The position numbers were made by a program, and so were the translations under genes. From NCBI RefSeq assembly GCF_055900595.2, contig NZ_CM148325.1: a DNA stretch of 64,000 nucleotides. One strand, 5' to 3'. Positions 410-11,428 of the stretch are shown here, one piece after another. Position 1 is the stretch's first letter. Every line of letters starts with the position of its first letter. The notes under the pieces were generated by a model that was given only the letters and a program-made list of their open reading frames with translations, was not told the origin of the DNA and did not search any database.

Positions 410-736
410 CTATTTATTTAAACCGGACATATTAATACCTATATACGATAATTCATCTAAATCTTGATGCCTATTTGTAGGTTCTAAATAACGTGCAGGA
501 AATAAATCCCTGGCAGCATGATAATATAAAATAGAGATAATATCCTTTTGTATTTCCTTCAATGCCTCTCTATTTTCACAACCAGTAATTTCATAAACCT
601 CCTGATCGCTACAATTTTCTAATACATAATTTATGCACGATTCATAAATCATCAAACCGTCTTCTGATACATCAATGTGAAATTGATTCACTGTTCCTGA
701 AGGATTTCTATGTTCCAATAAATACATTTCTCTCAC
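410..736 (-). CDS. Putative Rhs immunity protein (RhsI), 108 aa, cognate to the CT toxin of the upstream rhs
   Basis: Starts 3 nt after the rhs stop on the same strand with a GTG start; AT-rich like the rhs tip. This is the canonical position for an immunity gene. Confidence 0.6.
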   Translation of the reverse strand: MREMYLLEHRNPSGTVNQFHIDVSEDGLMIYESCINYVLENCSDQEVYEITGCENREALKEIQKDIISILYYHAARDLFPARYLEPTNRHQDLDELSYIGINMSGLNK

Positions 737-739
737 CTA

Positions 740-3700
740 TTAAAATCTTACATAATCACTAAATATATCTCTAAATTCATCAAGTTCACTTTGAGTTGGT
801 CTTTCCCATCGGTCAGTATTTCTATTCATTCGATGTTGGATATTTTTCCTAGAGATATCCCTCATAGATGTGACAATTTCAGAACCATCTTTTTCAATTA
901 TATGTGCTCTGCCATTTGGTCCCAGTACAACCCACCGCCCATCTGATTGCTTTAATATATCGCTAGAACGCGCATTTTGAAGATCATTAATAACAGCACC
1001 AATAGGTCGACCTTCACGATGCCGTTGTAAAGCATGACTACTTTTCTTCAAAGTAGCACACATCTGTCCCAACGGATCGATCCAACTTAATGGATTCGGT
1101 GCATATTGATAGAGATTCAGTCCCCCCGCCAGCCCTATCGGGTCCGTTACCATGAACCGCCCGACATCCGGATCATAGTACCTGTGCAGATTGTAATGCA
1201 GCCCTGTTTCCCTGTCGAGGTACTGTCCCTGGTAGCGCAGGTTCTGCTCCACCCCGCCGTGGTCCTTCTCCTGTATCGTGTTACCCCAGACCTGATACCC
1301 CGTCTCCCACACGATTTTCCCGTCACTGTCCGTCATCTCTTCCGGCGCACCGTTCACATCCGTGTGAAAATACAGTATCCGGTTCGGTCCCTCTTTGCCC
1401 GCCTTATCCACCCGCGCCAGCGGTTCATAACTCCCCTGGTCACTGTAGATATACAGGCTGCCTGTTCCCTCCGGCCTGCTCTCCTGCGCCAGCCGCATTC
1501 CGTCCCATAAAAATGTCGTCCGGTTATACGGTTTACCGTCAGGGCTGATGTGCTGTTTTTCCGTCCGCCTCCCCAGCGCATCGTACACATACCGGTACGT
1601 TCCCCGCGCTGTCGTCACTTCCACCATCCGGTGTTCCGCATCATAACGGTAACTCTGCGCTCCGCTCCGGCCCTGCTTTTCCACCGTCCGGCCAAATTCG
1701 TCGTAACGGTAGTGCACACCACGGTAAGACATCAGCCGGTTGAACGGCACAACGCTGTTTTCTGCCGTGGCCCTTTCCCCCGCACGCCGCCCCAGCAGGT
1801 TTCCCGCCGCGTCGTACTGCCAGCTCGCCAGATACCCCTCATCCTCCGAGCGGCACGCCGTGATGCGCCCCGTGGGGTCGTAGAAGTAATCCGTTTCCCC
1901 CCGCCGGCTGTGCCGCGTCTTCAGCAGTTCATCCTCGCCGCTGTAGCTGTACTGCCGGTCCGTGAACGTCTCCGGTACCACCCCGCGCATCCCGCTGTAT
2001 GTCTCCCTGCGCTTCAGCCGCCCGGCGGTGTCGTAAAGCTGCCGCGTGCTCAGTCGCCCCTGACTTCTGAGCACCTCCCGGTGCAGGGCGTCACGTGTGA
2101 ACTCGCTGATGACCTCCCGGTCCAGATTTATCTGCTGGAGATGGCCGCTGCCGTAGTACAGATGGCGCTGCGTTCTGCCGTCCGGAAAGGTGGTGGCTGT
2201 CCGGTTGCCCAGTTCATCGTACTGATGGGTCAGGACGCCCTGCGCCGTCTCCTCGGTCAGCATCCGCCCCAGTCTGTCGTAACTGAAGCGGATAACTTCC
2301 GGCGCGTCAGTTTCGTGCCGCTGGCGGCGGATTTCCAGTAGCTGGTCTGCCGCATCATGGACGTATTCCGTATGGCTATCGGCTGTCTCCTTTGCCGTGA
2401 GCCGGCCCGCCGCATCGCGCGCCAGCCGGTGACGGATTTCACCGCCCCGGTCCCCGGTGAACACCACTTCCGTGACCGCGTTCAGCGCGTTGTAACGGTA
2501 CGCCTGGCGGCAGCCGTCCGGATTTATCTGCTCCGCCAGACGGTCCAGCACATCATGGCGGAACCGGTAGCTTTCTCCGTTCTCGTTCGTGAGCGTGACC
2601 AGACGCCCGTAAGCATCGTACCCGAACGCCGTCCTGCGCCCCGTCGCGTCTGTCCGGCTGCGCACCCGGCCCTGCCCGTCCCGCTGCCAGCGCGTTATCC
2701 TCCCCATCGGGCTGGTGTACTTCACCAGCCTGCCCGCCGCGTCCGACTGGTAATTCACCGTGCGGCCGTCCGCCAGTATCACCTCCGTCAGATGACCGCT
2801 GTCGTCATACCCGTAGCGCGTGCTGTGGCTCTGCGCGTCTGTCATTCTGATAAGCCGCGTGCGTTCGTCGTAGAACCAGGCCGTCTGCGAGCCGGAACAG
2901 TCCGTGTGCCGCATGAGCTGCCCGTCTTCGTTCCACTGAAGGTATTTATTCCCCCCACGGGCATCGGTTATCTGCACCACCTGGCCGTGGCGGTCATACT
3001 GATACCGGGTGTTCTGCTGCAGCGGGTCGGTCACCGCAAGAAGATTGCCGCGTTCATCGTACTCACAGCACCAGCTGTTCCCCGCCGCGTCCACCTCCGT
3101 TTCCGGCTGGTGCCACACCGGGTGCCACTGTGTCTGTGCCACCCGCCCCAGCGGGTCGTGCGTCTCCGTGATATGCCCCTGCCGGTCATACACATAGCGC
3201 CATTTGCCGCCCTGCGCATCGCTCATTCCCAGTAACAGCCGTTCTTCGTCGCTCCAGCGGAACGTCGTCACCTGCCCGGCTTCGTCCTGGTACGCCGTCA
3301 CCTGGTTCTGCGCATCCCACTGATGATAACGCGTGCGCCCCAGCCCGTCCGTCACGCACAGCCTGCGTGCCGCCAGGCTCCACGCCAGCCGGTACTGTTC
3401 ACCGCTGTCCGTGTGGTGCCCCGTCACCCGCCACGCTGCGTCATCCGGGCCTTCATACCAGCCCCACTGGTAATAATACCCTTCGCCGCCCGGCTGGCGG
3501 TGCAGGGTCATGCAGTGGTTTTCGTCGTAAGCAAACTCACGCAGCAGGTGCCCCGTGCTGTCGTACACGCCGTTCAGGTCGCCGGCCTCGTCATAGCGGT
3601 AACGACGCAGCAGTAAAGGAGCCGTCTCAGGGAAATGCTGATAAATCTGTGTCACCCGCCGGGGATGCGCCGCCAGTTCATAATGCAGACGAATGCACGG

Positions 3701-5371
3701 ACGCTGCTGTTCACCGCTGATTTGCGTGATGCGCCCCAGCTCGTCGTAGTACAGATTCAGACAGTTGCTGTTGCGGTCGCCCAGCATTTTCAGCCGCTGG
3801 CGCTGCGGGTGATGCGGGTCGGCTTCAAACAGAAAAAACTGCCCGTCATCGCTGCTGATAAGCCAGTGCCCCTGCTCACCCCGCCGTACTGCCAGTCCTT
3901 CGCCGGGGCTGTAAAACCCGCTCCCCGGCAGCACGGCCTCCATATCCAGGCGTCGTCCCATGCCCGACACAAAGGTCATACAGTTTTCGTCAGCAGTACC
4001 CGGCGTGCGCTCGAGGCTGACTTCATACATCACGCTCCAGCCCTGCCCGAACATCCCTTCCGTGCGGTCGTCACGACTGCTGTACACGCGCTGCCAGTCC
4101 AGCGGAAAGTGGCCCGGCAGACTGAAATCGAAGTCATCGTCATCCGCCAGATATTTGGCTCCGGTGGCGGCATTGACCGGATGCGGAAGGGCACTGATGG
4201 CCTTCTGCGTCATCACCCCCATCCCGACACTGGCAGCAAAACAGGCGATTTTAGAAAGCATTTTGCCCGGGCGAAGAAACATCAGCGCCACGGTTGCCAC
4301 CAGGGTTATCTGCGACCTGCCGCTTCTGATATCCCTGACCACCAGTAACGGACCGCCAATGCGGACATCCGGTGACAAAAACGCCCCGTTCCCCGGCTCA
4401 TTCACCACCCTGGCCTCGCAGGTACAGCGTGCCCCGCTGCGTGCCGCCGGCTGGCTGTTGATACGCACATCCCGCGCGCCTTCCGCGATATATTCCGCTG
4501 CGGGCGGTTCATCATCGCCTTTGAACAGATTACTGATGCTGCCAATAACCGCATTCACTCCCTGAAAGGCGGTTTCCAGCATACCGCCCGGACTCAACAG
4601 GTTAAGGGCCGTTCCCAGGGGGTCATCCAGAAAGGCGGCTTTTTTTTGTGCGAGAAACTGCGTCAGTGAGGAGGGATGTTTATGGCAGTCGATTTTATCG
4701 TCAGGGGTCGGGGTGGAGCCCGGGGCCGCACTGGCCACGGTGGGCTGCCATAGTTCCGACACAAAATGTGTCACGCCATCCACCATTTCAGAACGCCCTT
4801 CTTCCGTACTGAGCTGGTCGTGCAGCGCCCGGGACATCAGCACAGGCCCTGTCACCGGGTTAACCGCCAGGGCTATGGCCCCCGCCATTTCCAGATATTC
4901 CCCGGCCACATCCAGAAACGTTCTGGCATCCTCCTGACGCTGCGCTTCTTCCTGTTCCGCCTTCGCCTTCGCCTGCGCCTCCTGCGCCTCAATGTCCTGC
5001 CGTGATGCCGCAGTCGCCGCGGCCCGCGCGGCAGGTTTGCTGTTGATCCATGTGTCGCCAGAGCCGGTGAGGATGTAACCTTCAATCTGAGGCGGGAAAA
5101 GCCAGTTCGCCAGTTGCTCACTTTCCCTACTGATTCGGTCATTCCAGCCCTGATACGACATAAATACCGCTGTTGCTATACCGATCGCTAAAATGGTTGA
5201 GCAGCCCAGCGTTGCCACTTCAACTCCGCCCAGCGCCGCCATGGTTCCGACAACCAGAACATCCACCAGGGCTGTGGCGGCAACCTCTACAACTGCCCCC
5301 AGCACATCTGCTATAAACGACGTATGCAGCAGGGCATCACCCTGCCTTGCTGCCCAGAATGCCTCTTCCAT
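740..5371 (-). CDS. prePAAR/PAAR-Rhs type VI secretion effector, 1543 aa
   Basis: N-terminus carries an AARxxDxxxH prePAAR motif (AARQGDALLH, residues 7-16) and hydrophobic segments flanking a PAAR-like region. Long YD/Rhs repeat core follows. Core ends with [26 protein letters not shown], then a 108-aa C-terminal tip. Confidence 0.9.
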   Translation of the reverse strand: MEEAFWAARQGDALLHTSFIADVLGAVVEVAATALVDVLVVGTMAALGGVEVATLGCSTILAIGIATAVFMSYQGWNDRISRESEQLANWLFPPQIEGYILTGSGDTWINSKPAARAAATAASRQDIEAQEAQAKAKAEQEEAQRQEDARTFLDVAGEYLEMAGAIALAVNPVTGPVLMSRALHDQLSTEEGRSEMVDGVTHFVSELWQPTVASAAPGSTPTPDDKIDCHKHPSSLTQFLAQKKAAFLDDPLGTALNLLSPGGMLETAFQGVNAVIGSISNLFKGDDEPPAAEYIAEGARDVRINSQPAARSGARCTCEARVVNEPGNGAFLSPDVRIGGPLLVVRDIRSGRSQITLVATVALMFLRPGKMLSKIACFAASVGMGVMTQKAISALPHPVNAATGAKYLADDDDFDFSLPGHFPLDWQRVYSSRDDRTEGMFGQGWSVMYEVSLERTPGTADENCMTFVSGMGRRLDMEAVLPGSGFYSPGEGLAVRRGEQGHWLISSDDGQFFLFEADPHHPQRQRLKMLGDRNSNCLNLYYDELGRITQISGEQQRPCIRLHYELAAHPRRVTQIYQHFPETAPLLLRRYRYDEAGDLNGVYDSTGHLLREFAYDENHCMTLHRQPGGEGYYYQWGWYEGPDDAAWRVTGHHTDSGEQYRLAWSLAARRLCVTDGLGRTRYHQWDAQNQVTAYQDEAGQVTTFRWSDEERLLLGMSDAQGGKWRYVYDRQGHITETHDPLGRVAQTQWHPVWHQPETEVDAAGNSWCCEYDERGNLLAVTDPLQQNTRYQYDRHGQVVQITDARGGNKYLQWNEDGQLMRHTDCSGSQTAWFYDERTRLIRMTDAQSHSTRYGYDDSGHLTEVILADGRTVNYQSDAAGRLVKYTSPMGRITRWQRDGQGRVRSRTDATGRRTAFGYDAYGRLVTLTNENGESYRFRHDVLDRLAEQINPDGCRQAYRYNALNAVTEVVFTGDRGGEIRHRLARDAAGRLTAKETADSHTEYVHDAADQLLEIRRQRHETDAPEVIRFSYDRLGRMLTEETAQGVLTHQYDELGNRTATTFPDGRTQRHLYYGSGHLQQINLDREVISEFTRDALHREVLRSQGRLSTRQLYDTAGRLKRRETYSGMRGVVPETFTDRQYSYSGEDELLKTRHSRRGETDYFYDPTGRITACRSEDEGYLASWQYDAAGNLLGRRAGERATAENSVVPFNRLMSYRGVHYRYDEFGRTVEKQGRSGAQSYRYDAEHRMVEVTTARGTYRYVYDALGRRTEKQHISPDGKPYNRTTFLWDGMRLAQESRPEGTGSLYIYSDQGSYEPLARVDKAGKEGPNRILYFHTDVNGAPEEMTDSDGKIVWETGYQVWGNTIQEKDHGGVEQNLRYQGQYLDRETGLHYNLHRYYDPDVGRFMVTDPIGLAGGLNLYQYAPNPLSWIDPLGQMCATLKKSSHALQRHREGRPIGAVINDLQNARSSDILKQSDGRWVVLGPNGRAHIIEKDGSEIVTSMRDISRKNIQHRMNRNTDRWERPTQSELDEFRDIFSDYVRF
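743..1066 (-). other. Rhs C-terminal toxin domain (108 aa after the DPLG junction), activity unknown
   Basis: Sequence after IDPLG: QMCATLKKSSHALQRHREGRPIGAVINDLQ...DEFRDIFSDYVRF. Composition drops sharply to AT-rich relative to the GC-rich core. Confidence 0.6.
1074..1185. repeat. Direct repeat copy 2 (Rhs core/CT junction within the full-length rhs)
   Basis: ~85% identical to 188..301. Confidence 0.7.
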
Positions 5372-5389
5372 GTCCCGTTCCCTGTGTGA

Positions 5390-5842
5390 TTAATTCGTCC
5401 CGGCTTCCTGCCGTATCCTGAAGCGCAGATTCTTTTTAATTTCAGCCCAGCGCGTCATATCTGCCGGGGTCAGCGGTGTGGTTCTGGCGTAGGTGAAGGC
5501 CATCATGACCCGCTCACCCGGCAACACAAATGCCACCTGACACTGGTACACCTGCTCGTTACCCCGGAGAAACTGACTCTGTATTTCCAGCCCTTCTTCA
5601 CCGTCATTAATCCCTACCCGTGTTACCTGAACGGGCGTGTAGTGAAGATCCTTTACCTGTTTCTCCAGTTTTTTCATTTGCTGTTCAATCTGGGAGGCTA
5701 ATTCGTCTCCTTCCTGCATCTGGCCCCGGCTGATAATGAGTGCAGCGTCGGGATCGCTGAGACGCAGCATATTAATCGTACTGTCCTGAATAATATTCCC
5801 GGGGAAAGTTACAACAGTTTCATTGAGATAATACTCCGTCAT
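5390..5842 (-). CDS. DUF1795/EagR-family chaperone for the prePAAR-Rhs effector, 150 aa
   Basis: Sits between vgrG and rhs on the same strand, 18 bp upstream of the rhs start; size and N-terminal pattern (MTEYYLNETVVTFPG) fit the Eag family. Confidence 0.65.
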   Translation of the reverse strand: MTEYYLNETVVTFPGNIIQDSTINMLRLSDPDAALIISRGQMQEGDELASQIEQQMKKLEKQVKDLHYTPVQVTRVGINDGEEGLEIQSQFLRGNEQVYQCQVAFVLPGERVMMAFTYARTTPLTPADMTRWAEIKKNLRFRIRQEAGTN

Positions 5843-5892
5843 AATGGTATGAGTCCTTGTTAATTAATAAATTATTTAATGATGGTTTTTAT

Positions 5893-7887
5893 TTATTTTT
5901 TAGTCATGAAGGTGACGTCTATTGCCAACTGAAGGGCTGTTTTCTCCGATGTTCCAGGCGGAGGTATATCTGCCGCTCTGTCATTCATATTTAAATCAAG
6001 CTGCCCTGATTGTGTATTTATCTTTCCATTTTCCGTTGCGGTAATATTAAAATTCTTACAGGTTATATTAAATATTCCGTCACTGGTCATTTGCAGGATA
6101 GTTTCTCCGCAGCTAAGAATAATGGAATCTCCCGCAGCAAGGCGTAAATTCTGTACGGCCTGAATCGTTTTATTTCGTCCGGCAAGGGAGGTATCATCCG
6201 TCTGGACTGTTAGAGAACGTTTCTCACCAATAATCGCAGTTTCTGTTTTATCAATGACTTTAAGGCGATTATTGCCCACCCAGTGGCTTTCATTATTATT
6301 TACTTCAATGCGTTGATCTTTCTCGGCATGCAACCAGATTTCTTCTCCGCCAGTTTTATCCTCAAAACGCAAGGCGTTAGCATTGGTCGGGCCGCCGCCG
6401 ATAGTGTGGCTGTAAAACCCGCTTTGCGTCGCTGCGCCCGGTAGTCCCCACGGTGGCATGGTGTCCTGATTGTAGGTACGCCCAACGATTATCGGTAAAT
6501 CCGGATCACCGTTTTTGAAATCCACCAGTACTTCCTGACCAATGCGCGGGATCTGAATGCCACCGAATCCTTTACCCGCCCACGGATAACTGACACGGAC
6601 CCAGCAGGAACTGTTTTCATCATTCTTACCGTAACGATCCCAGCCAAACTGAACTTTCACCCGGCCATATTTATCTGTCCAGATTTCCTGTCCCGTCGGG
6701 CCGGTCACGATGGCGCTCTGCGGGCCTTTAGTATGGGGTTTGCTCAGGGTTCGCTGCGGGCGGTAAACTTCGCTGGTGGGATGCAGTTCAAAGCTGGTTG
6801 AGTAAGAGAAATGCTGCTCCTGGCCGCTGTGTTGCGCATTGTCCTGTATAAATAGCGTGGTCTGAACCAGCAGATATTCCCGGTTCACTTCGGCTGTCGG
6901 ATAGTTTTCCAGGGTGAAGGTAAAACCTGTCATCAGGGTACGAATATTGCCGCTGCCCTGTACCCGACTACCGGGGCTACACTGTTCTTCCATGCGGATG
7001 CGTGTCAGCATTTCACCTTCACTCTTTGTGAAGTAGTCTCCCGGCCATTCGTAGTGCTCATATTCAGCAAGGCCAGTTTCACGCGGATTAGCCACGGTGC
7101 TCTTGAGCAGTGAACGCGGCTTCATAAAGTCGAAATCATTTAGTACCCACTGTCCGCTGCGCAGGCTTTCATTTGCTGTGATGGTATGGATAAATTCCTT
7201 GTCCAGTTTCAGCCCTTTCTGGTAATAACACACCAGTGGCGAATCTGCGCACGCCTTGTGGACATTAATGGCATCAGCCAGCACTAACGTGTGACTGTTC
7301 TCGTTGTGCTCAAACCACCAGTAGATACCCCACTCCTGCATCAGGCGCTGAATAAAATCGAAATCTGTTTCACCGTACTGCACCTGCCAGGCGCGAGTCG
7401 GATAATTTTCCACCAGTCGTTTTTCCACTGGCCAGGGGTACTCATCCAGTACCTCATCCAGGATCTCCACCACGTTTTTATTTTGAAACGCTTTGTAGTC
7501 ACTAGTGTGGGTCAGTATTTTTAACCACGGTTCAATCCGCAGTTCATACACCACCGAACGTCCTTGATGACCAGCCACGCGTGCCGCCGTCACCAGCCCG
7601 CTGATATAACGTTTTCCGCCGCCATCCAATTCGATATTGACGCACAGATCTTTGCCCACCATCGGTTTGAGCTGCAGGTTGGCTGCGGGGGAAACATAGC
7701 CCAGGTTCAGGATGTCAGGAGTTTTTAATTTAATAGAATAAGTAAATAGTTCCCCTACTGTTTCTGTCCCCCCTAAGCTTGCAAACAGTAACATTCCATC
7801 AGGAACTGCGCTGCCGCTCAAAGTCACGTTATGTGTACCCGATCCAGTTAGTGCGCCGGATGGATAATCTGTAGCTGCAAAACTCAT
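5893..7887 (-). CDS. vgrG: VgrG type VI secretion spike protein, 664 aa
   Basis: gp27/gp5-like hallmark segments ([62 protein letters not shown]) with a C-terminal beta-helix-like repeat region; 3' end is AT-rich. Confidence 0.9.
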
Positions 7888-8242
7888 AATTAATCCTTTT
7901 AACTAGAAATGGCTAAGTGCTAATAAGAAATCTTACAGAGAATAAAATATGCAATATATTCGTAGCTGGCATAAAACATCTCAATACTTATGCGTGCTAC
8001 TGAAGATACTATCAACCATATATGCCTTGAAGAATGCACCATCATGTTAACCTGGTGGAAACATTCACCTAAAGTACATTAATAAAACCAATAAAATTAT
8101 TTAATCTGTTATTTGATATGATTATCATCAAATCTTAAAATACGTTCCCCGGTTCTAATTATGCTAAAACCATAATATTCTTTTGTACTTCCGGAAGAGA
8201 GCATATATTTCCCGATATACATAACATCTGAAGATAGCTCAC

Positions 8243-8464
8243 TTATGTCAATACATTGGGATCGAACTGACCTGTCACTCTTTTCAATTTTATTGCATTG
8301 CCATATTTACCTTCATATAAAATATAATTTGAAATAATATTCCCATCGTCTGGTTTTGAACAAACCCGCCCGTCTTGTAAATATACATTACCGGGTAACA
8401 ATGGGCGAACATAATCACCAACAGTGCATCCCGATAAAAAGAATAACAAAAAGAATCTCTTCAT
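8243..8464 (-). CDS. Small predicted lipoprotein, 73 aa; candidate periplasmic immunity protein
   Basis: Signal peptide with lipobox (MKRFFLLFFLSGC). Start overlaps the stop of the upstream HExxH gene by 4 bp (ATGA), suggesting translational coupling. AT-rich. Confidence 0.55.
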   Translation of the reverse strand: MKRFFLLFFLSGCTVGDYVRPLLPGNVYLQDGRVCSKPDDGNIISNYILYEGKYGNAIKLKRVTGQFDPNVLT

Positions 8465-9030
8465 ATGACACCAGCAGGAAATAAATTAAGCACCTTCTTG
8501 TATTTTTCCGATAGAGTATTCACTGATTCTGTTGTATCACCTACATAGTTAACATTTGCCAAATCAGAGACCAATCCATAGTTAATCAATAGCCAATAAT
8601 CAGCAACTATAGATGCTTGTTGTTCCATAGAATAAGAAGAAATTGACTGTAAATTAAGATCGTAATGATAATTTGCCGCCCAGGAAAATAAACCACGCAA
8701 CTTAACTGCATACCCTTTCTGATATTGCCAAACATGCATCGTTTCATGAATAAACAAGTGAGAAGCACCTGCAACTGTTTCACGATCACCAGGCATTGCT
8801 TGCGATGAAAAATCTGAACTATAAACAGCATCAGGATAATACATTTCCCCGTTTGGGGTCATCGCTGTTCTTTCCCCTTGACCAGGCAAATATTTTTCAT
8901 TGTGGATCCATACCTTGCTATAATCAATTGTATTCTCAAAAATCGATCTGGCCAATGTTAATTCACCAGATGTCATTCTCCTTAATGATATATCCTTTCC
9001 CCTGGAAATAATATCTTTCAGATAAAACAC
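8461..9030 (-). CDS. Putative zincin-like metallopeptidase, 189 aa; candidate secreted effector
   Basis: HExxH motif extended to HETMHVWQYQ at residues 95-104, an HExxHxxQ pattern I recall as typical of DUF4157-type toxin domains. No signal peptide. AT-rich. Confidence 0.5.
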   Translation of the reverse strand: MFYLKDIISRGKDISLRRMTSGELTLARSIFENTIDYSKVWIHNEKYLPGQGERTAMTPNGEMYYPDAVYSSDFSSQAMPGDRETVAGASHLFIHETMHVWQYQKGYAVKLRGLFSWAANYHYDLNLQSISSYSMEQQASIVADYWLLINYGLVSDLANVNYVGDTTESVNTLSEKYKKVLNLFPAGVI

Positions 9031-9928
9031 AAACGCTCTTTGATGTTCAACATTTCCACTTTATACAGTATTGATGACATCATCTTCATAGAAAATGAAA
9101 TCAAAGTAAGTTATCAACGTTTCCCGTTATGATTTTTTAACCTTAATTCTCAGCATTTTTATTAATCTATCTTCAATATCAATAACCGATGCAAATGATT
9201 ACGCAGTTATCATAACTCCCATCAATTGATTAATATCTGTAAACGCTACCGCCCCACCCTGATATTTTAATCTGCACATAGCAATCTTAACGTTATGCCC
9301 CATACATTAGTAATGTAAATTAAGAATTCGGAATATATCAAATTCACTTCATAAATTAATATCGAGAATGATATACACATTAATTATATTGAAGTCATGT
9401 TTTAAGCGTTGTAATGACCATGGAACAGGACTAATTCCAGAAACTCCTGTCAGGCAATAGCGCGTTTATCACCCTACATGCCTTTTACATTTTTTAGCCT
9501 TTTCTGTAACGTCGGCAACTGGCTCATTTAATCAGCAATTGTATCGGCATTTGGCGTATTACCCCTGAAACCTGCCATGTGCTAGCCCCTCACTATTCAA
9601 TGATCCAACCACGCCAGTGTCCACTGCAACCACTGGCGTTCAGAGCGACGAACGAGTGGCGCAAGAGTAGGACTGCCGTCGGGTATCATCAAACCAATAG
9701 TGGTTGTTTCCGTCATAATTTCATCAGGTTGCTATTTTGTTGCCGGCCGCCTTTATCCCCGCATATTTATAGCGGGATTATTTTGCATCGTTACACGATA
9801 AAAGGTAGGATTCTGCGCCGACAGTTATACCCATAAAGAATAATGGTGAATCTTGTCATCGCCAGGATGAATAAACATTGTTCATGGCAACTTATATGAC
9901 TTTTTCATTAAAGCAATCAGGGAGAGCA

Positions 9929-11428
9929 ATGAGTAAACACGACACCGACACTTCAGATCAACACGCCGCGAAACGCCGCTGGCTTAATGCCCACGAAGAG
10001 GGGTATCACAAAGCGATGGGCAATCGCCAGGTACAGATGATCGCCATCGGCGGCGCGATTGGCACCGGCTTGTTTTTAGGCGCTGGAGCCCGACTGCAAA
10101 TGGCGGGGCCAGCACTGGCATTGGTCTATTTAATCTGCGGCCTGTTTTCATTTTTTATTCTGCGTGCATTGGGTGAGCTGGTGCTACACCGCCCTTCCAG
10201 TGGCAGTTTTGTCTCTTATGCCCGTGAGTTTTTAGGAGAGAAAGCCGCTTACGTTGCAGGCTGGATGTACTTCATTAACTGGGCGATGACCGGGATTGTC
10301 GATATTACCGCCGTCGCGCTGTATATGCATTACTGGGGCGCATTTGGTGGTGTGCCGCAGTGGGTCTTTGCGCTCGCTGCGCTGACCATCGTTGGCACCA
10401 TGAATATGATTGGTGTGAAATGGTTTGCGGAGATGGAGTTCTGGTTTGCGCTTATTAAAGTGCTCGCCATTGTGACCTTTTTGGTCGTGGGTACAGTGTT
10501 CCTCGGTAGTGGTCAGCCGCTGGATGGCAACACCACTGGCTTTCATTTAATCACCGATAATGGCGGCTTCTTCCCCCATGGTTTGCTACCTGCGCTGGTA
10601 TTGATTCAGGGCGTAGTGTTTGCTTTTGCCTCCATTGAAATGGTGGGTACAGCTGCCGGAGAATGTAAAGATCCGCAGACCATGGTGCCTAAAGCGATTA
10701 ACAGTGTGATTTGGCGTATTGGCCTGTTTTACGTCGGCTCCGTGGTGTTGCTGGTTATGTTATTGCCGTGGAGCGCGTATCAGGCGGGGCAAAGTCCGTT
10801 CGTGACGTTTTTCTCTAAACTGGGTGTGCCATATATCGGCAGCATTATGAACATTGTGGTGCTGACCGCTGCCCTCTCCAGCCTGAACTCAGGTCTGTAC
10901 TGCACCGGACGTATTCTGCGCTCAATGGCGATGGGCGGTTCCGCACCGAGTTTTATGGCGAAAATGAGCCGTCAGCATGTGCCGTATGCCGGGATCCTGG
11001 CGACGCTGGTCGTTTATGTTGTTGGCGTATTCCTTAACTATCTGGTGCCGTCTCGCGTATTTGAGATTGTGTTGAACTTCGCGTCGCTGGGAATCATCGC
11101 TTCATGGGCGTTTATCATTGTTTGCCAGATGCGTCTACGTAAAGCGATTAAAGAAGGCAAAGCAGCGGATGTCAGTTTTAAACTCCCAGGTGCGCCCTTT
11201 ACGTCGTGGCTGACATTACTGTTTTTACTGAGCGTCCTGGTGCTGATGGCGTTCGATTACCCGAACGGGACTTATACCATCGCTGCGCTGCCGATTATTG
11301 GCCTTCTGCTGGTAGTAGGTTGGTTTGGTGTACGCAAACGCGTTGCAGAAATACACAGCACTGCGCCAGTCGTCGAGGAAGACGAAGAAAAACAGGAAAT
11401 TGTGTTTAAGCCAGAGACGGCGAGTTAA
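9929..11428 (+). CDS. ansP: L-asparagine permease, 499 aa
   Basis: Matches remembered K-12 AnsP from MSKHDTDTSDQHAAKRRW; amino acid permease family. Confidence 0.9.
   Translation: MSKHDTDTSDQHAAKRRWLNAHEEGYHKAMGNRQVQMIAIGGAIGTGLFLGAGARLQMAGPALALVYLICGLFSFFILRALGELVLHRPSSGSFVSYAREFLGEKAAYVAGWMYFINWAMTGIVDITAVALYMHYWGAFGGVPQWVFALAALTIVGTMNMIGVKWFAEMEFWFALIKVLAIVTFLVVGTVFLGSGQPLDGNTTGFHLITDNGGFFPHGLLPALVLIQGVVFAFASIEMVGTAAGECKDPQTMVPKAINSVIWRIGLFYVGSVVLLVMLLPWSAYQAGQSPFVTFFSKLGVPYIGSIMNIVVLTAALSSLNSGLYCTGRILRSMAMGGSAPSFMAKMSRQHVPYAGILATLVVYVVGVFLNYLVPSRVFEIVLNFASLGIIASWAFIIVCQMRLRKAIKEGKAADVSFKLPGAPFTSWLTLLFLLSVLVLMAFDYPNGTYTIAALPIIGLLLVVGWFGVRKRVAEIHSTAPVVEEDEEKQEIVFKPETAS

Follow-up and report, generated by a model that had tools for sequence, protein, structure and literature searches.

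The gap upstream of vgrG in an Escherichia coli type VI secretion island: the tail of a frameshifted lipoprotein gene and a 221-bp intergenic region

The C-terminal domain of VgrG2b and the other members of the Tpe family are periplasmic antibacterial metallopeptidase toxins of type VI secretion systems (T6SS), defined as a family by Wood et al. (PMC6899460). In many Enterobacteriaceae the Tpe-family toxin is a cargo effector encoded on its own, the effector gene is always followed by a small ORF, and the immunity proteins of Enterobacteriaceae are predicted outer-membrane lipoproteins (PMC6899460). The immunity family has conserved cysteines, and both the levels of PA0261 and the protection it confers collapse without DsbA (PMC6899460). 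Described members include P. aeruginosa VgrG2b–PA0261, A. baylyi Tpe1–Tpi1 and S. arizonae SARI_02727/SARI_02726 (PMC6899460, PMC12992299), the last pair having been validated experimentally (PMC12992299), and periplasmic antibacterial toxicity dependent on catalytic residues has been shown for VgrG2b, Tpe1 and SARI_02727 (PMC6899460, PMC12992299). The effector–immunity family itself is already published. There is also a precedent for an intergenic region upstream of vgrG that regulates this gene in E. coli, namely h3R, located between hcp3 and vgrG3 of EHEC, where the T6SS genes are repressed by H-NS (PMC13141884). Here, we compare with these systems the DNA that separates a pair of genes, coding for a HExxH protein and a lipoprotein, from vgrG in a 64,000-nucleotide stretch of the E. 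coli chromosome, referred to below as the window.

Gene order and the effector–immunity cassette

The locus lies beside ansP and is carried by 223–225 of 5426 E. coli genomes, every time as a single chromosomal copy; region 7700–9400 of the window shares 99.9% identity with eight complete RefSeq genomes. The gene order given below was obtained from the RefSeq annotation of the near-identical NZ_CP098223.1 together with Pfam matches; other sources are named on the line concerned.

9878–11428, plus strand: ansP (RefSeq annotation/Pfam)
9597–9716: remnant of yncG (GST), glutathione S-transferase-like, 39 codons, adjoining ansP
8461–8991, minus strand: gene for the HExxH metallopeptidase effector, 176 aa according to RefSeq homologues; the mechanical ORF starts from GTG 9030
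8243–8464, minus strand: truncated lipoprotein ORF of 73 codons with lipobox LSGC, stop at 8243–8245
8256..8257, minus strand: frameshift site in the lipoprotein gene (alignments to intact alleles)
8109..8242, minus strand: out-of-frame 3′ remnant of the lipoprotein gene, 134 bp, ancestral stop TAA at 8111–8109
8113..8141, plus strand: antisense sigma-70-like site, TTGATA-17-TAAAAT (consensus scan, PWM)
8040..8108, minus strand: distal, fast-evolving part of the true intergenic region, 69 nt
7888..8039, minus strand: vgrG-proximal conserved part of the intergenic region, 152 nt, with few variable columns
7920..8045, minus strand: probably spurious 41-codon ORF coinciding with the conserved spacer segment (ORF list)
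5893..7887, minus strand: vgrG, 664 aa (Pfam Phage_GPD, Gp5_trimer_C, Phage_base_V)
5390–5842, minus strand: eag/DcrB (Pfam DcrB)
740–5371, minus strand: PAAR-Rhs (Pfam RHS_repeat, PAAR, RHS)
410–736, minus strand: small ORF downstream of Rhs (RefSeq annotation)

The HExxH protein matches the effector domain of VgrG2b (PDB 6H56) with a phmmer E-value of 1.6e-19 (73.7 bits), the motif reading HETMHVWQ in the window and HEMTHVWQ in 6H56, and it has 143 homologues of about 160–200 aa in Enterobacterales. By homology, it is a member of the VgrG2b C-terminal (Tpe) family of metallopeptidase effectors. The small envelope-targeted ORF expected directly downstream is represented by the lipoprotein gene, T6SS linkage is provided by the downstream vgrG, and the same pairing recurs at seven other loci. 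The lipoprotein is the predicted Tpi-type immunity partner of the effector. Furthermore, the two genes overlap by ATGA (8461–8464), an arrangement that fits one translationally coupled unit. The locus therefore resembles the described Tpe/Tpi systems in having an HExxH effector homologous to 6H56 followed directly by a small envelope-targeted partner, and it resembles the reported enterobacterial members in its predicted stand-alone cargo effector and a lipoprotein immunity protein with conserved cysteines. It differs from the described systems in that the E. coli partner, 118–120 aa long, stays below the DUF7480 and NF045617 thresholds: the intact allele scores 30.9 bits against NCBIfam NF045617 (‘putative T6SS immunity periplasmic lipoprotein’; cut-off 43), and Pfam DUF7480 does not match the E. 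coli, Citrobacter farmeri or Atlantibacter lipoproteins. The partner lipoprotein of E. hormaechei matches DUF7480 at 4.4e-16. The window copy departs from the family further in its frameshifted immunity gene and in the effector start codon, changed from ATG to ATA. The canonical effector start (8991–8989, minus strand) reads ATA in both the window and NZ_CP098223.1 and ATG in ten other E. coli alleles; GTG 9030 and ATG 8976 are in-frame alternatives. An ATA start alongside a broken immunity gene suggests that the whole cassette is decaying in this lineage.

Homologous pairs without a downstream vgrG are found in Enterobacter, Kosakonia, Serratia, Pantoea and Atlantibacter. In E. hormaechei the pair follows remnants of T6SS core genes, in Atlantibacter it lies upstream of hcp–Tlde1 with a 386-bp gap, in Kosakonia it sits among prophage lysis genes, and in S. 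fonticola and Pantoea it is located beside a convergent hcp and beside an integrase fragment, respectively. Since pairs occur without a downstream vgrG, the pair must be expressible on its own. Judging from this distribution, the HExxH/lipoprotein pair is an autonomous two-gene effector–immunity cassette.

The C. farmeri locus (L006) has the same gene order and an AT-rich spacer, with an effector 67% identical and a VgrG 74% identical to those of the window: a vgrG 5′ fragment is followed by the pair, a 140-bp gap, vgrG, DcrB and Rhs. The two loci differ in the length of the gap (140 bp versus 221 bp of true intergenic DNA in the window) and in the truncated vgrG fragment upstream of the pair, which only C. 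farmeri has; in the window, a tblastn search upstream of the HExxH gene detected no remnant of vgrG. The fragment, 326 aa long (within 4000–6102 of L006), is separated by 20 nt from the HExxH gene downstream of it and shares 82% identity with residues 4–216 of the window VgrG. This arrangement hints that the C. farmeri cassette may be located inside a duplication of the vgrG 5′ region.

Within E. coli, the spacer, the HExxH/lipoprotein pair and this vgrG are always found together, and the spacer matches its own locus only (225 of 5426 genomes, one copy each). The idea that the spacer travels with other E. coli vgrG paralogues was rejected, the paralogues matching only from about vgrG codon 55 onward. 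Some further observations concern the surroundings of the locus. Approximately 560 E. coli genomes share 9257–9900 and diverge afterwards; in AR_0081, the one examined, an ISEc1 (ydcC) transposase stands in place of the whole island. The same element, ISEc1 (ydcC), cuts vgrG after 123 nt in one allele (L015). In a near-identical genome (L001, 18089–19168), Rhs and the small ORF that partners it are followed by a fragment of an RHS core, an orphan ‘putative toxin’ and an immunity gene of the SUKH-4 type, a typical orphan toxin–immunity array, which in the window runs off the start (1–740). A search of the literature for the ansP/vgrG/Rhs or rhsE/vgrG locus and for transcription start site (TSS) maps of E2348/69 yielded nothing directly usable.

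The frameshifted lipoprotein gene

Intact E. coli alleles of the lipoprotein (L002, 118 aa; L003, 120 aa; accessions of intact alleles WP_000819258.1 and WP_001542896.1) carry CCCGTATG where the aligned window sequence reads CCCA-ATG. The lesion, at 8256/8257, is a 1-nt deletion together with a substitution; the resulting frameshift leads to a premature TAA at 8243–8245, whereas the ancestral TAA is located at 8109–8111. Consistent with this, in most other carriers the gene is intact, 357–363 nt long (118–120 aa), and ends 221 nt before vgrG, and the alignment with the 126-aa C. farmeri homologue continues through this C-terminal region. The remnant also retains a coding signature: among 11 E. 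coli alleles, diversity at the three codon positions of the ancestral frame is 0.033, 0.036 and 0.094, with 14 of 48 third positions variable.

The frameshift is already known, being annotated in RefSeq. In NZ_CP098223, 99.9% identical to the window at this locus, PGAP labels a 356-nt gene (NBY12_RS24680) as ‘lipoprotein, frameshifted’; it reaches 134 nt into the gap and corresponds to window positions 8109–8464, without any difference in extent. The indel is common to 8–9 assemblies at ≥99% identity, all labelled ‘lipoprotein’, the label that RefSeq gives to the frameshifted copy. Single-base indels are frequent assembly errors, and the gene might accordingly be supposed to be intact and the gap to be simply 221 bp long. 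However, the presence of the same indel in 8–9 independent assemblies rules out a read error; these complete genomes come from different laboratories and hosts and share the adjacent substitution as well, and the site is not within a long homopolymer. The probability that the frameshift is an artefact is negligible.

Alignment of eight partner lipoproteins from six genera shows that Cys35 and Cys71 are invariant, as is the lipobox cysteine. The frameshift of the window allele falls one codon before Cys71, which is lost along with everything beyond it. Thus, of the lipobox and conserved cysteines characteristic of Tpi/PA0261-type partners, the window allele keeps LSGC and has lost Cys71, whereas the intact E. 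coli alleles have both features. Because the frameshift precedes the invariant Cys71 by a single codon, we infer an inactive immunity gene in the lineage of the window.

Independent disruptions of the lipoprotein gene are observed elsewhere in E. coli: an A-run deletion in L004 and L018, and a T-run deletion in the signal-peptide codons in L005 and L024 (the latter being EPEC E2348/69). These lineages also have a vgrG::rhs deletion fusion annotated as pseudogenes. In E2348/69 the spacer is located at 2521151–2521371 of NZ_CP059840.2 and vgrG is truncated; the island with an intact vgrG is carried, for example, by the source strain of the window and by an APEC O78 isolate. Among 40 evenly sampled carriers, about six bear the label ‘lipoprotein’ that RefSeq uses for frameshifted copies.

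Composition, conservation and signals of the gap

The sequence-only reading of this locus had described the gap as a 355-bp non-coding AT-rich spacer. The length is correct for the distance between the ORF stop at 8243–8245 and the vgrG ATG at 7887–7885, and no ORF longer than 41 codons is present on either strand of 7888–8242; the non-coding description fails for the 134 bp that are the tail of a gene. Since 8109–8242 is a gene remnant, the true intergenic distance is 221 bp, and the gap consists of two parts, the remnant (134 bp, 38%) and the true intergenic region 7888–8108 (221 bp). The GC content of the gap is 30.7%, compared with 49.4% for the whole window. The lipoprotein ORF (34.2%), the HExxH gene (36.8%) and the upstream segment 8992–9450 (31.2%) flank it, and composition switches at the start of vgrG. 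AT-richness is a property of the whole 1.6-kb block 7888–9450 and is not specific to the gap.

The intergenic region is itself heterogeneous. Counted per 60 nt, there are 10–14 variable sites from 8400 to 8041 and 2–5 from 8040 on into vgrG. In the distal part, 69 nt following the ancestral lipoprotein stop, 16 of 69 columns are variable, compared with 61 of 292 third positions of the pair (p = 0.74), so this segment drifts at the synonymous rate. The proximal 152 nt vary less than the third positions of the pair (12/152 versus 61/292, p = 4e-4) and of vgrG (9/152 versus 38/296, p = 0.023) and do not differ from vgrG overall (9/152 versus 52/888, p = 1.0), the counts of 12 and 9 including and leaving out, respectively, the allele with truncated vgrG. 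The 152 nt beside vgrG are conserved along with vgrG. Their low diversity suggests constraint, to be read with the relatedness of the alleles in mind, as a shared local genealogy or a recombination tract could also lower diversity without regulatory constraint. The step in allelic diversity at about 8040 is sharp, and the immunity gene has a much higher evolutionary rate than its neighbours. A Shine–Dalgarno sequence, AAGGA, can be read at 7898–7894, 6 nt before the vgrG ATG, and the 140-bp spacer of C. farmeri is alignable only around the RBS and the start codon.

A scan for the sigma-70 consensus revealed no minus-strand site in 7888–8242. On the coding strand, the highest PWM score is 11.0, compared with 11.5 ± 1.5 in composition-matched random sequences, 60% of which score as well or better; the PWM is approximate, its hexamer frequencies following published compilations, and this null result leaves room for a weak or activator-dependent promoter. 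The suggestion that the gap is large enough to hold a promoter is thus valid for the 221 bp as a matter of length, although nothing promoter-like rises above chance on the coding strand. In 7888–8242 there is no match to the sigma-54 consensus TGGCAC-N5-TTGCW at ≤2 mismatches and none to the Fur 19-mer at ≤3 mismatches. A perfect Fur-box core, GATAATCAT, is present at 8126–8118 (minus strand), about 230 nt upstream of vgrG; it falls within the final codons of the lipoprotein gene in its ancestral form, and the full 19-mer is matched at only about 12 of 19 positions by eye. The best promoter-like match in the region is antisense and points into the lipoprotein remnant (8113–8141, plus strand; 10/12 consensus, PWM 14.7); it has probably arisen by chance in AT-rich DNA. 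Promoter-like sites upstream of the pair are found at 9182–9155 and 9341–9312.

No site resembling an intrinsic terminator is present in the gap between the lipoprotein gene and vgrG. Predicted RNA folds of the whole spacer and of three sub-segments are no better than those of shuffled sequences (z = +0.43, +1.15, −0.38 and −0.56, the value of +1.15 belonging to the distal part, 8040–8108). Rho loading is unlikely because the RNA strand has more G than C (18% and 13%, respectively). Given this base bias and the absence of a terminator or stable hairpin in the gap, nothing shows that the transcript of the pair ends before vgrG. A covariance scan of 5000–10500 with Rfam 15, thresholded by E-value, returned only a chance match to snoR27 (9142–9234, E = 0.53), below the gathering score and outside the gap, and the only repeats are short matches of the kind common in AT-rich sequence. 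What is left of the spacer is ordinary intergenic DNA in which no special element can be detected.

Transcription of the cassette and of vgrG

We consider it probable that the gap as a whole is accounted for by a pseudogene tail and a module junction, the conserved part of which would serve as the vgrG RBS, 5′UTR and, possibly, a weak promoter. The alignments identify the upstream 134 bp (8109–8242) as the now untranslated tail of a predicted Tpi-type immunity lipoprotein gene broken by a 1-nt deletion, and we take 7888–8108 with confidence to be the junction of two putative T6SS modules, the AT-rich Tpe/Tpi-type cassette and vgrG–eag–PAAR–Rhs. As for the conserved 152 nt, we lean slightly towards their carrying, besides the RBS and 5′UTR of vgrG, a promoter that is weak or depends on an activator. 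It is plausible that this segment holds a vgrG promoter of its own, the grounds being conservation and gap length. Such a promoter would let vgrG–eag–rhs be expressed without the cassette, and it would probably be silenced by H-NS, which we propose because the whole 1.6-kb block has a GC content of only about 31–37%. Transcripts starting upstream of the cassette would probably also read through into vgrG, since no terminator is detectable.

The earlier proposal was that the whole 355 bp are non-coding and promoter-bearing and that the cassette and vgrG–eag–rhs form two fully independent transcription units. The gap is indeed long for a junction within an operon (by established operon-distance statistics, genes of one E. 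coli operon are typically separated by far less than the 221 bp between these co-directional genes), the pair is autonomous in other genera, and conservation extends over the 152 nt upstream of vgrG. However, 134 of the 355 bp are the frameshifted tail of a gene, neither a terminator nor a stable hairpin follows the lipoprotein gene, Rho loading is unlikely with G exceeding C, and no promoter scores above chance. Separate transcription of the pair retains the backing of its autonomy elsewhere, the 221-bp gap and the conserved 152 nt, but strict independence of the two units is unlikely, and partial coupling is the more likely condition. The converse explanation, in which HExxH–lipoprotein–vgrG–eag–rhs form one operon driven from upstream (candidate promoters at 9182–9155 or 9341–9312) and the 221 bp are an untranslated linker left by the joining of modules, accounts for a gap with neither terminator nor promoter signal. 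All genes are co-directional, the spacer, pair and vgrG always co-occur in E. coli, and promoter-like sites do exist upstream of the pair. Nevertheless, 221 bp would be atypically long inside an operon, nothing would explain why the proximal 152 nt are conserved beyond the RBS, and vgrG3 of EHEC is a unit separate from its upstream gene (PMC13141884). A single operon is therefore a doubtful candidate, although it is to be taken seriously.

Two further possibilities assign a more specific role to the conserved segment. The 152 nt (7888–8039) might be a dedicated cis-regulatory module, h3R-like in role and unrelated in sequence, that would uncouple vgrG–eag–rhs from the cassette through its own transcriptional or translational control, perhaps involving the 41-codon ORF. 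The window spacer, like h3R, lies directly upstream of vgrG and parts it from the upstream gene, and the EHEC locus is H-NS-repressed; in contrast, the terminator located right after the upstream stop codon in h3R and its predicted promoter (PMC13141884) have no detectable equivalents in the window gap, and the two regions share no sequence similarity. In EHEC, h3R is further described as repressing the translation of vgrG (PMC13141884). Such a module appears improbable. Alternatively, the conserved part could code for a separate product, be it the 41-aa ORF at 7920–8045 or a small RNA. All 11 sampled alleles keep the ORF intact, and its start at 8045 lies 5 nt upstream of the diversity step. 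On the other hand, the differences among its alleles are 7 non-synonymous and 5 synonymous, third positions show no significant excess, its Shine–Dalgarno sequence is weak, no counterpart exists in the C. farmeri spacer, and a small RNA would be at odds with the absence of an Rfam match and with folds no better than shuffles (z from −0.56 to +1.15). The ORF is thus unsupported as a gene, and a product encoded by the spacer is very improbable. A pseudogene tail with a module junction is the preferred explanation of the gap.

Overall, there is nothing remarkable about the gap within this decaying type VI secretion island, and the finding makes no open question testable. It matters mainly as a correction: the region relevant to a vgrG promoter is the 221 bp at 7888–8108, or the 152 nt within it, and not 355 bp. 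The locus represents one more modular, decaying T6SS effector island in E. coli, with a cassette placed before vgrG–eag–rhs and inactivated independently in different lineages.
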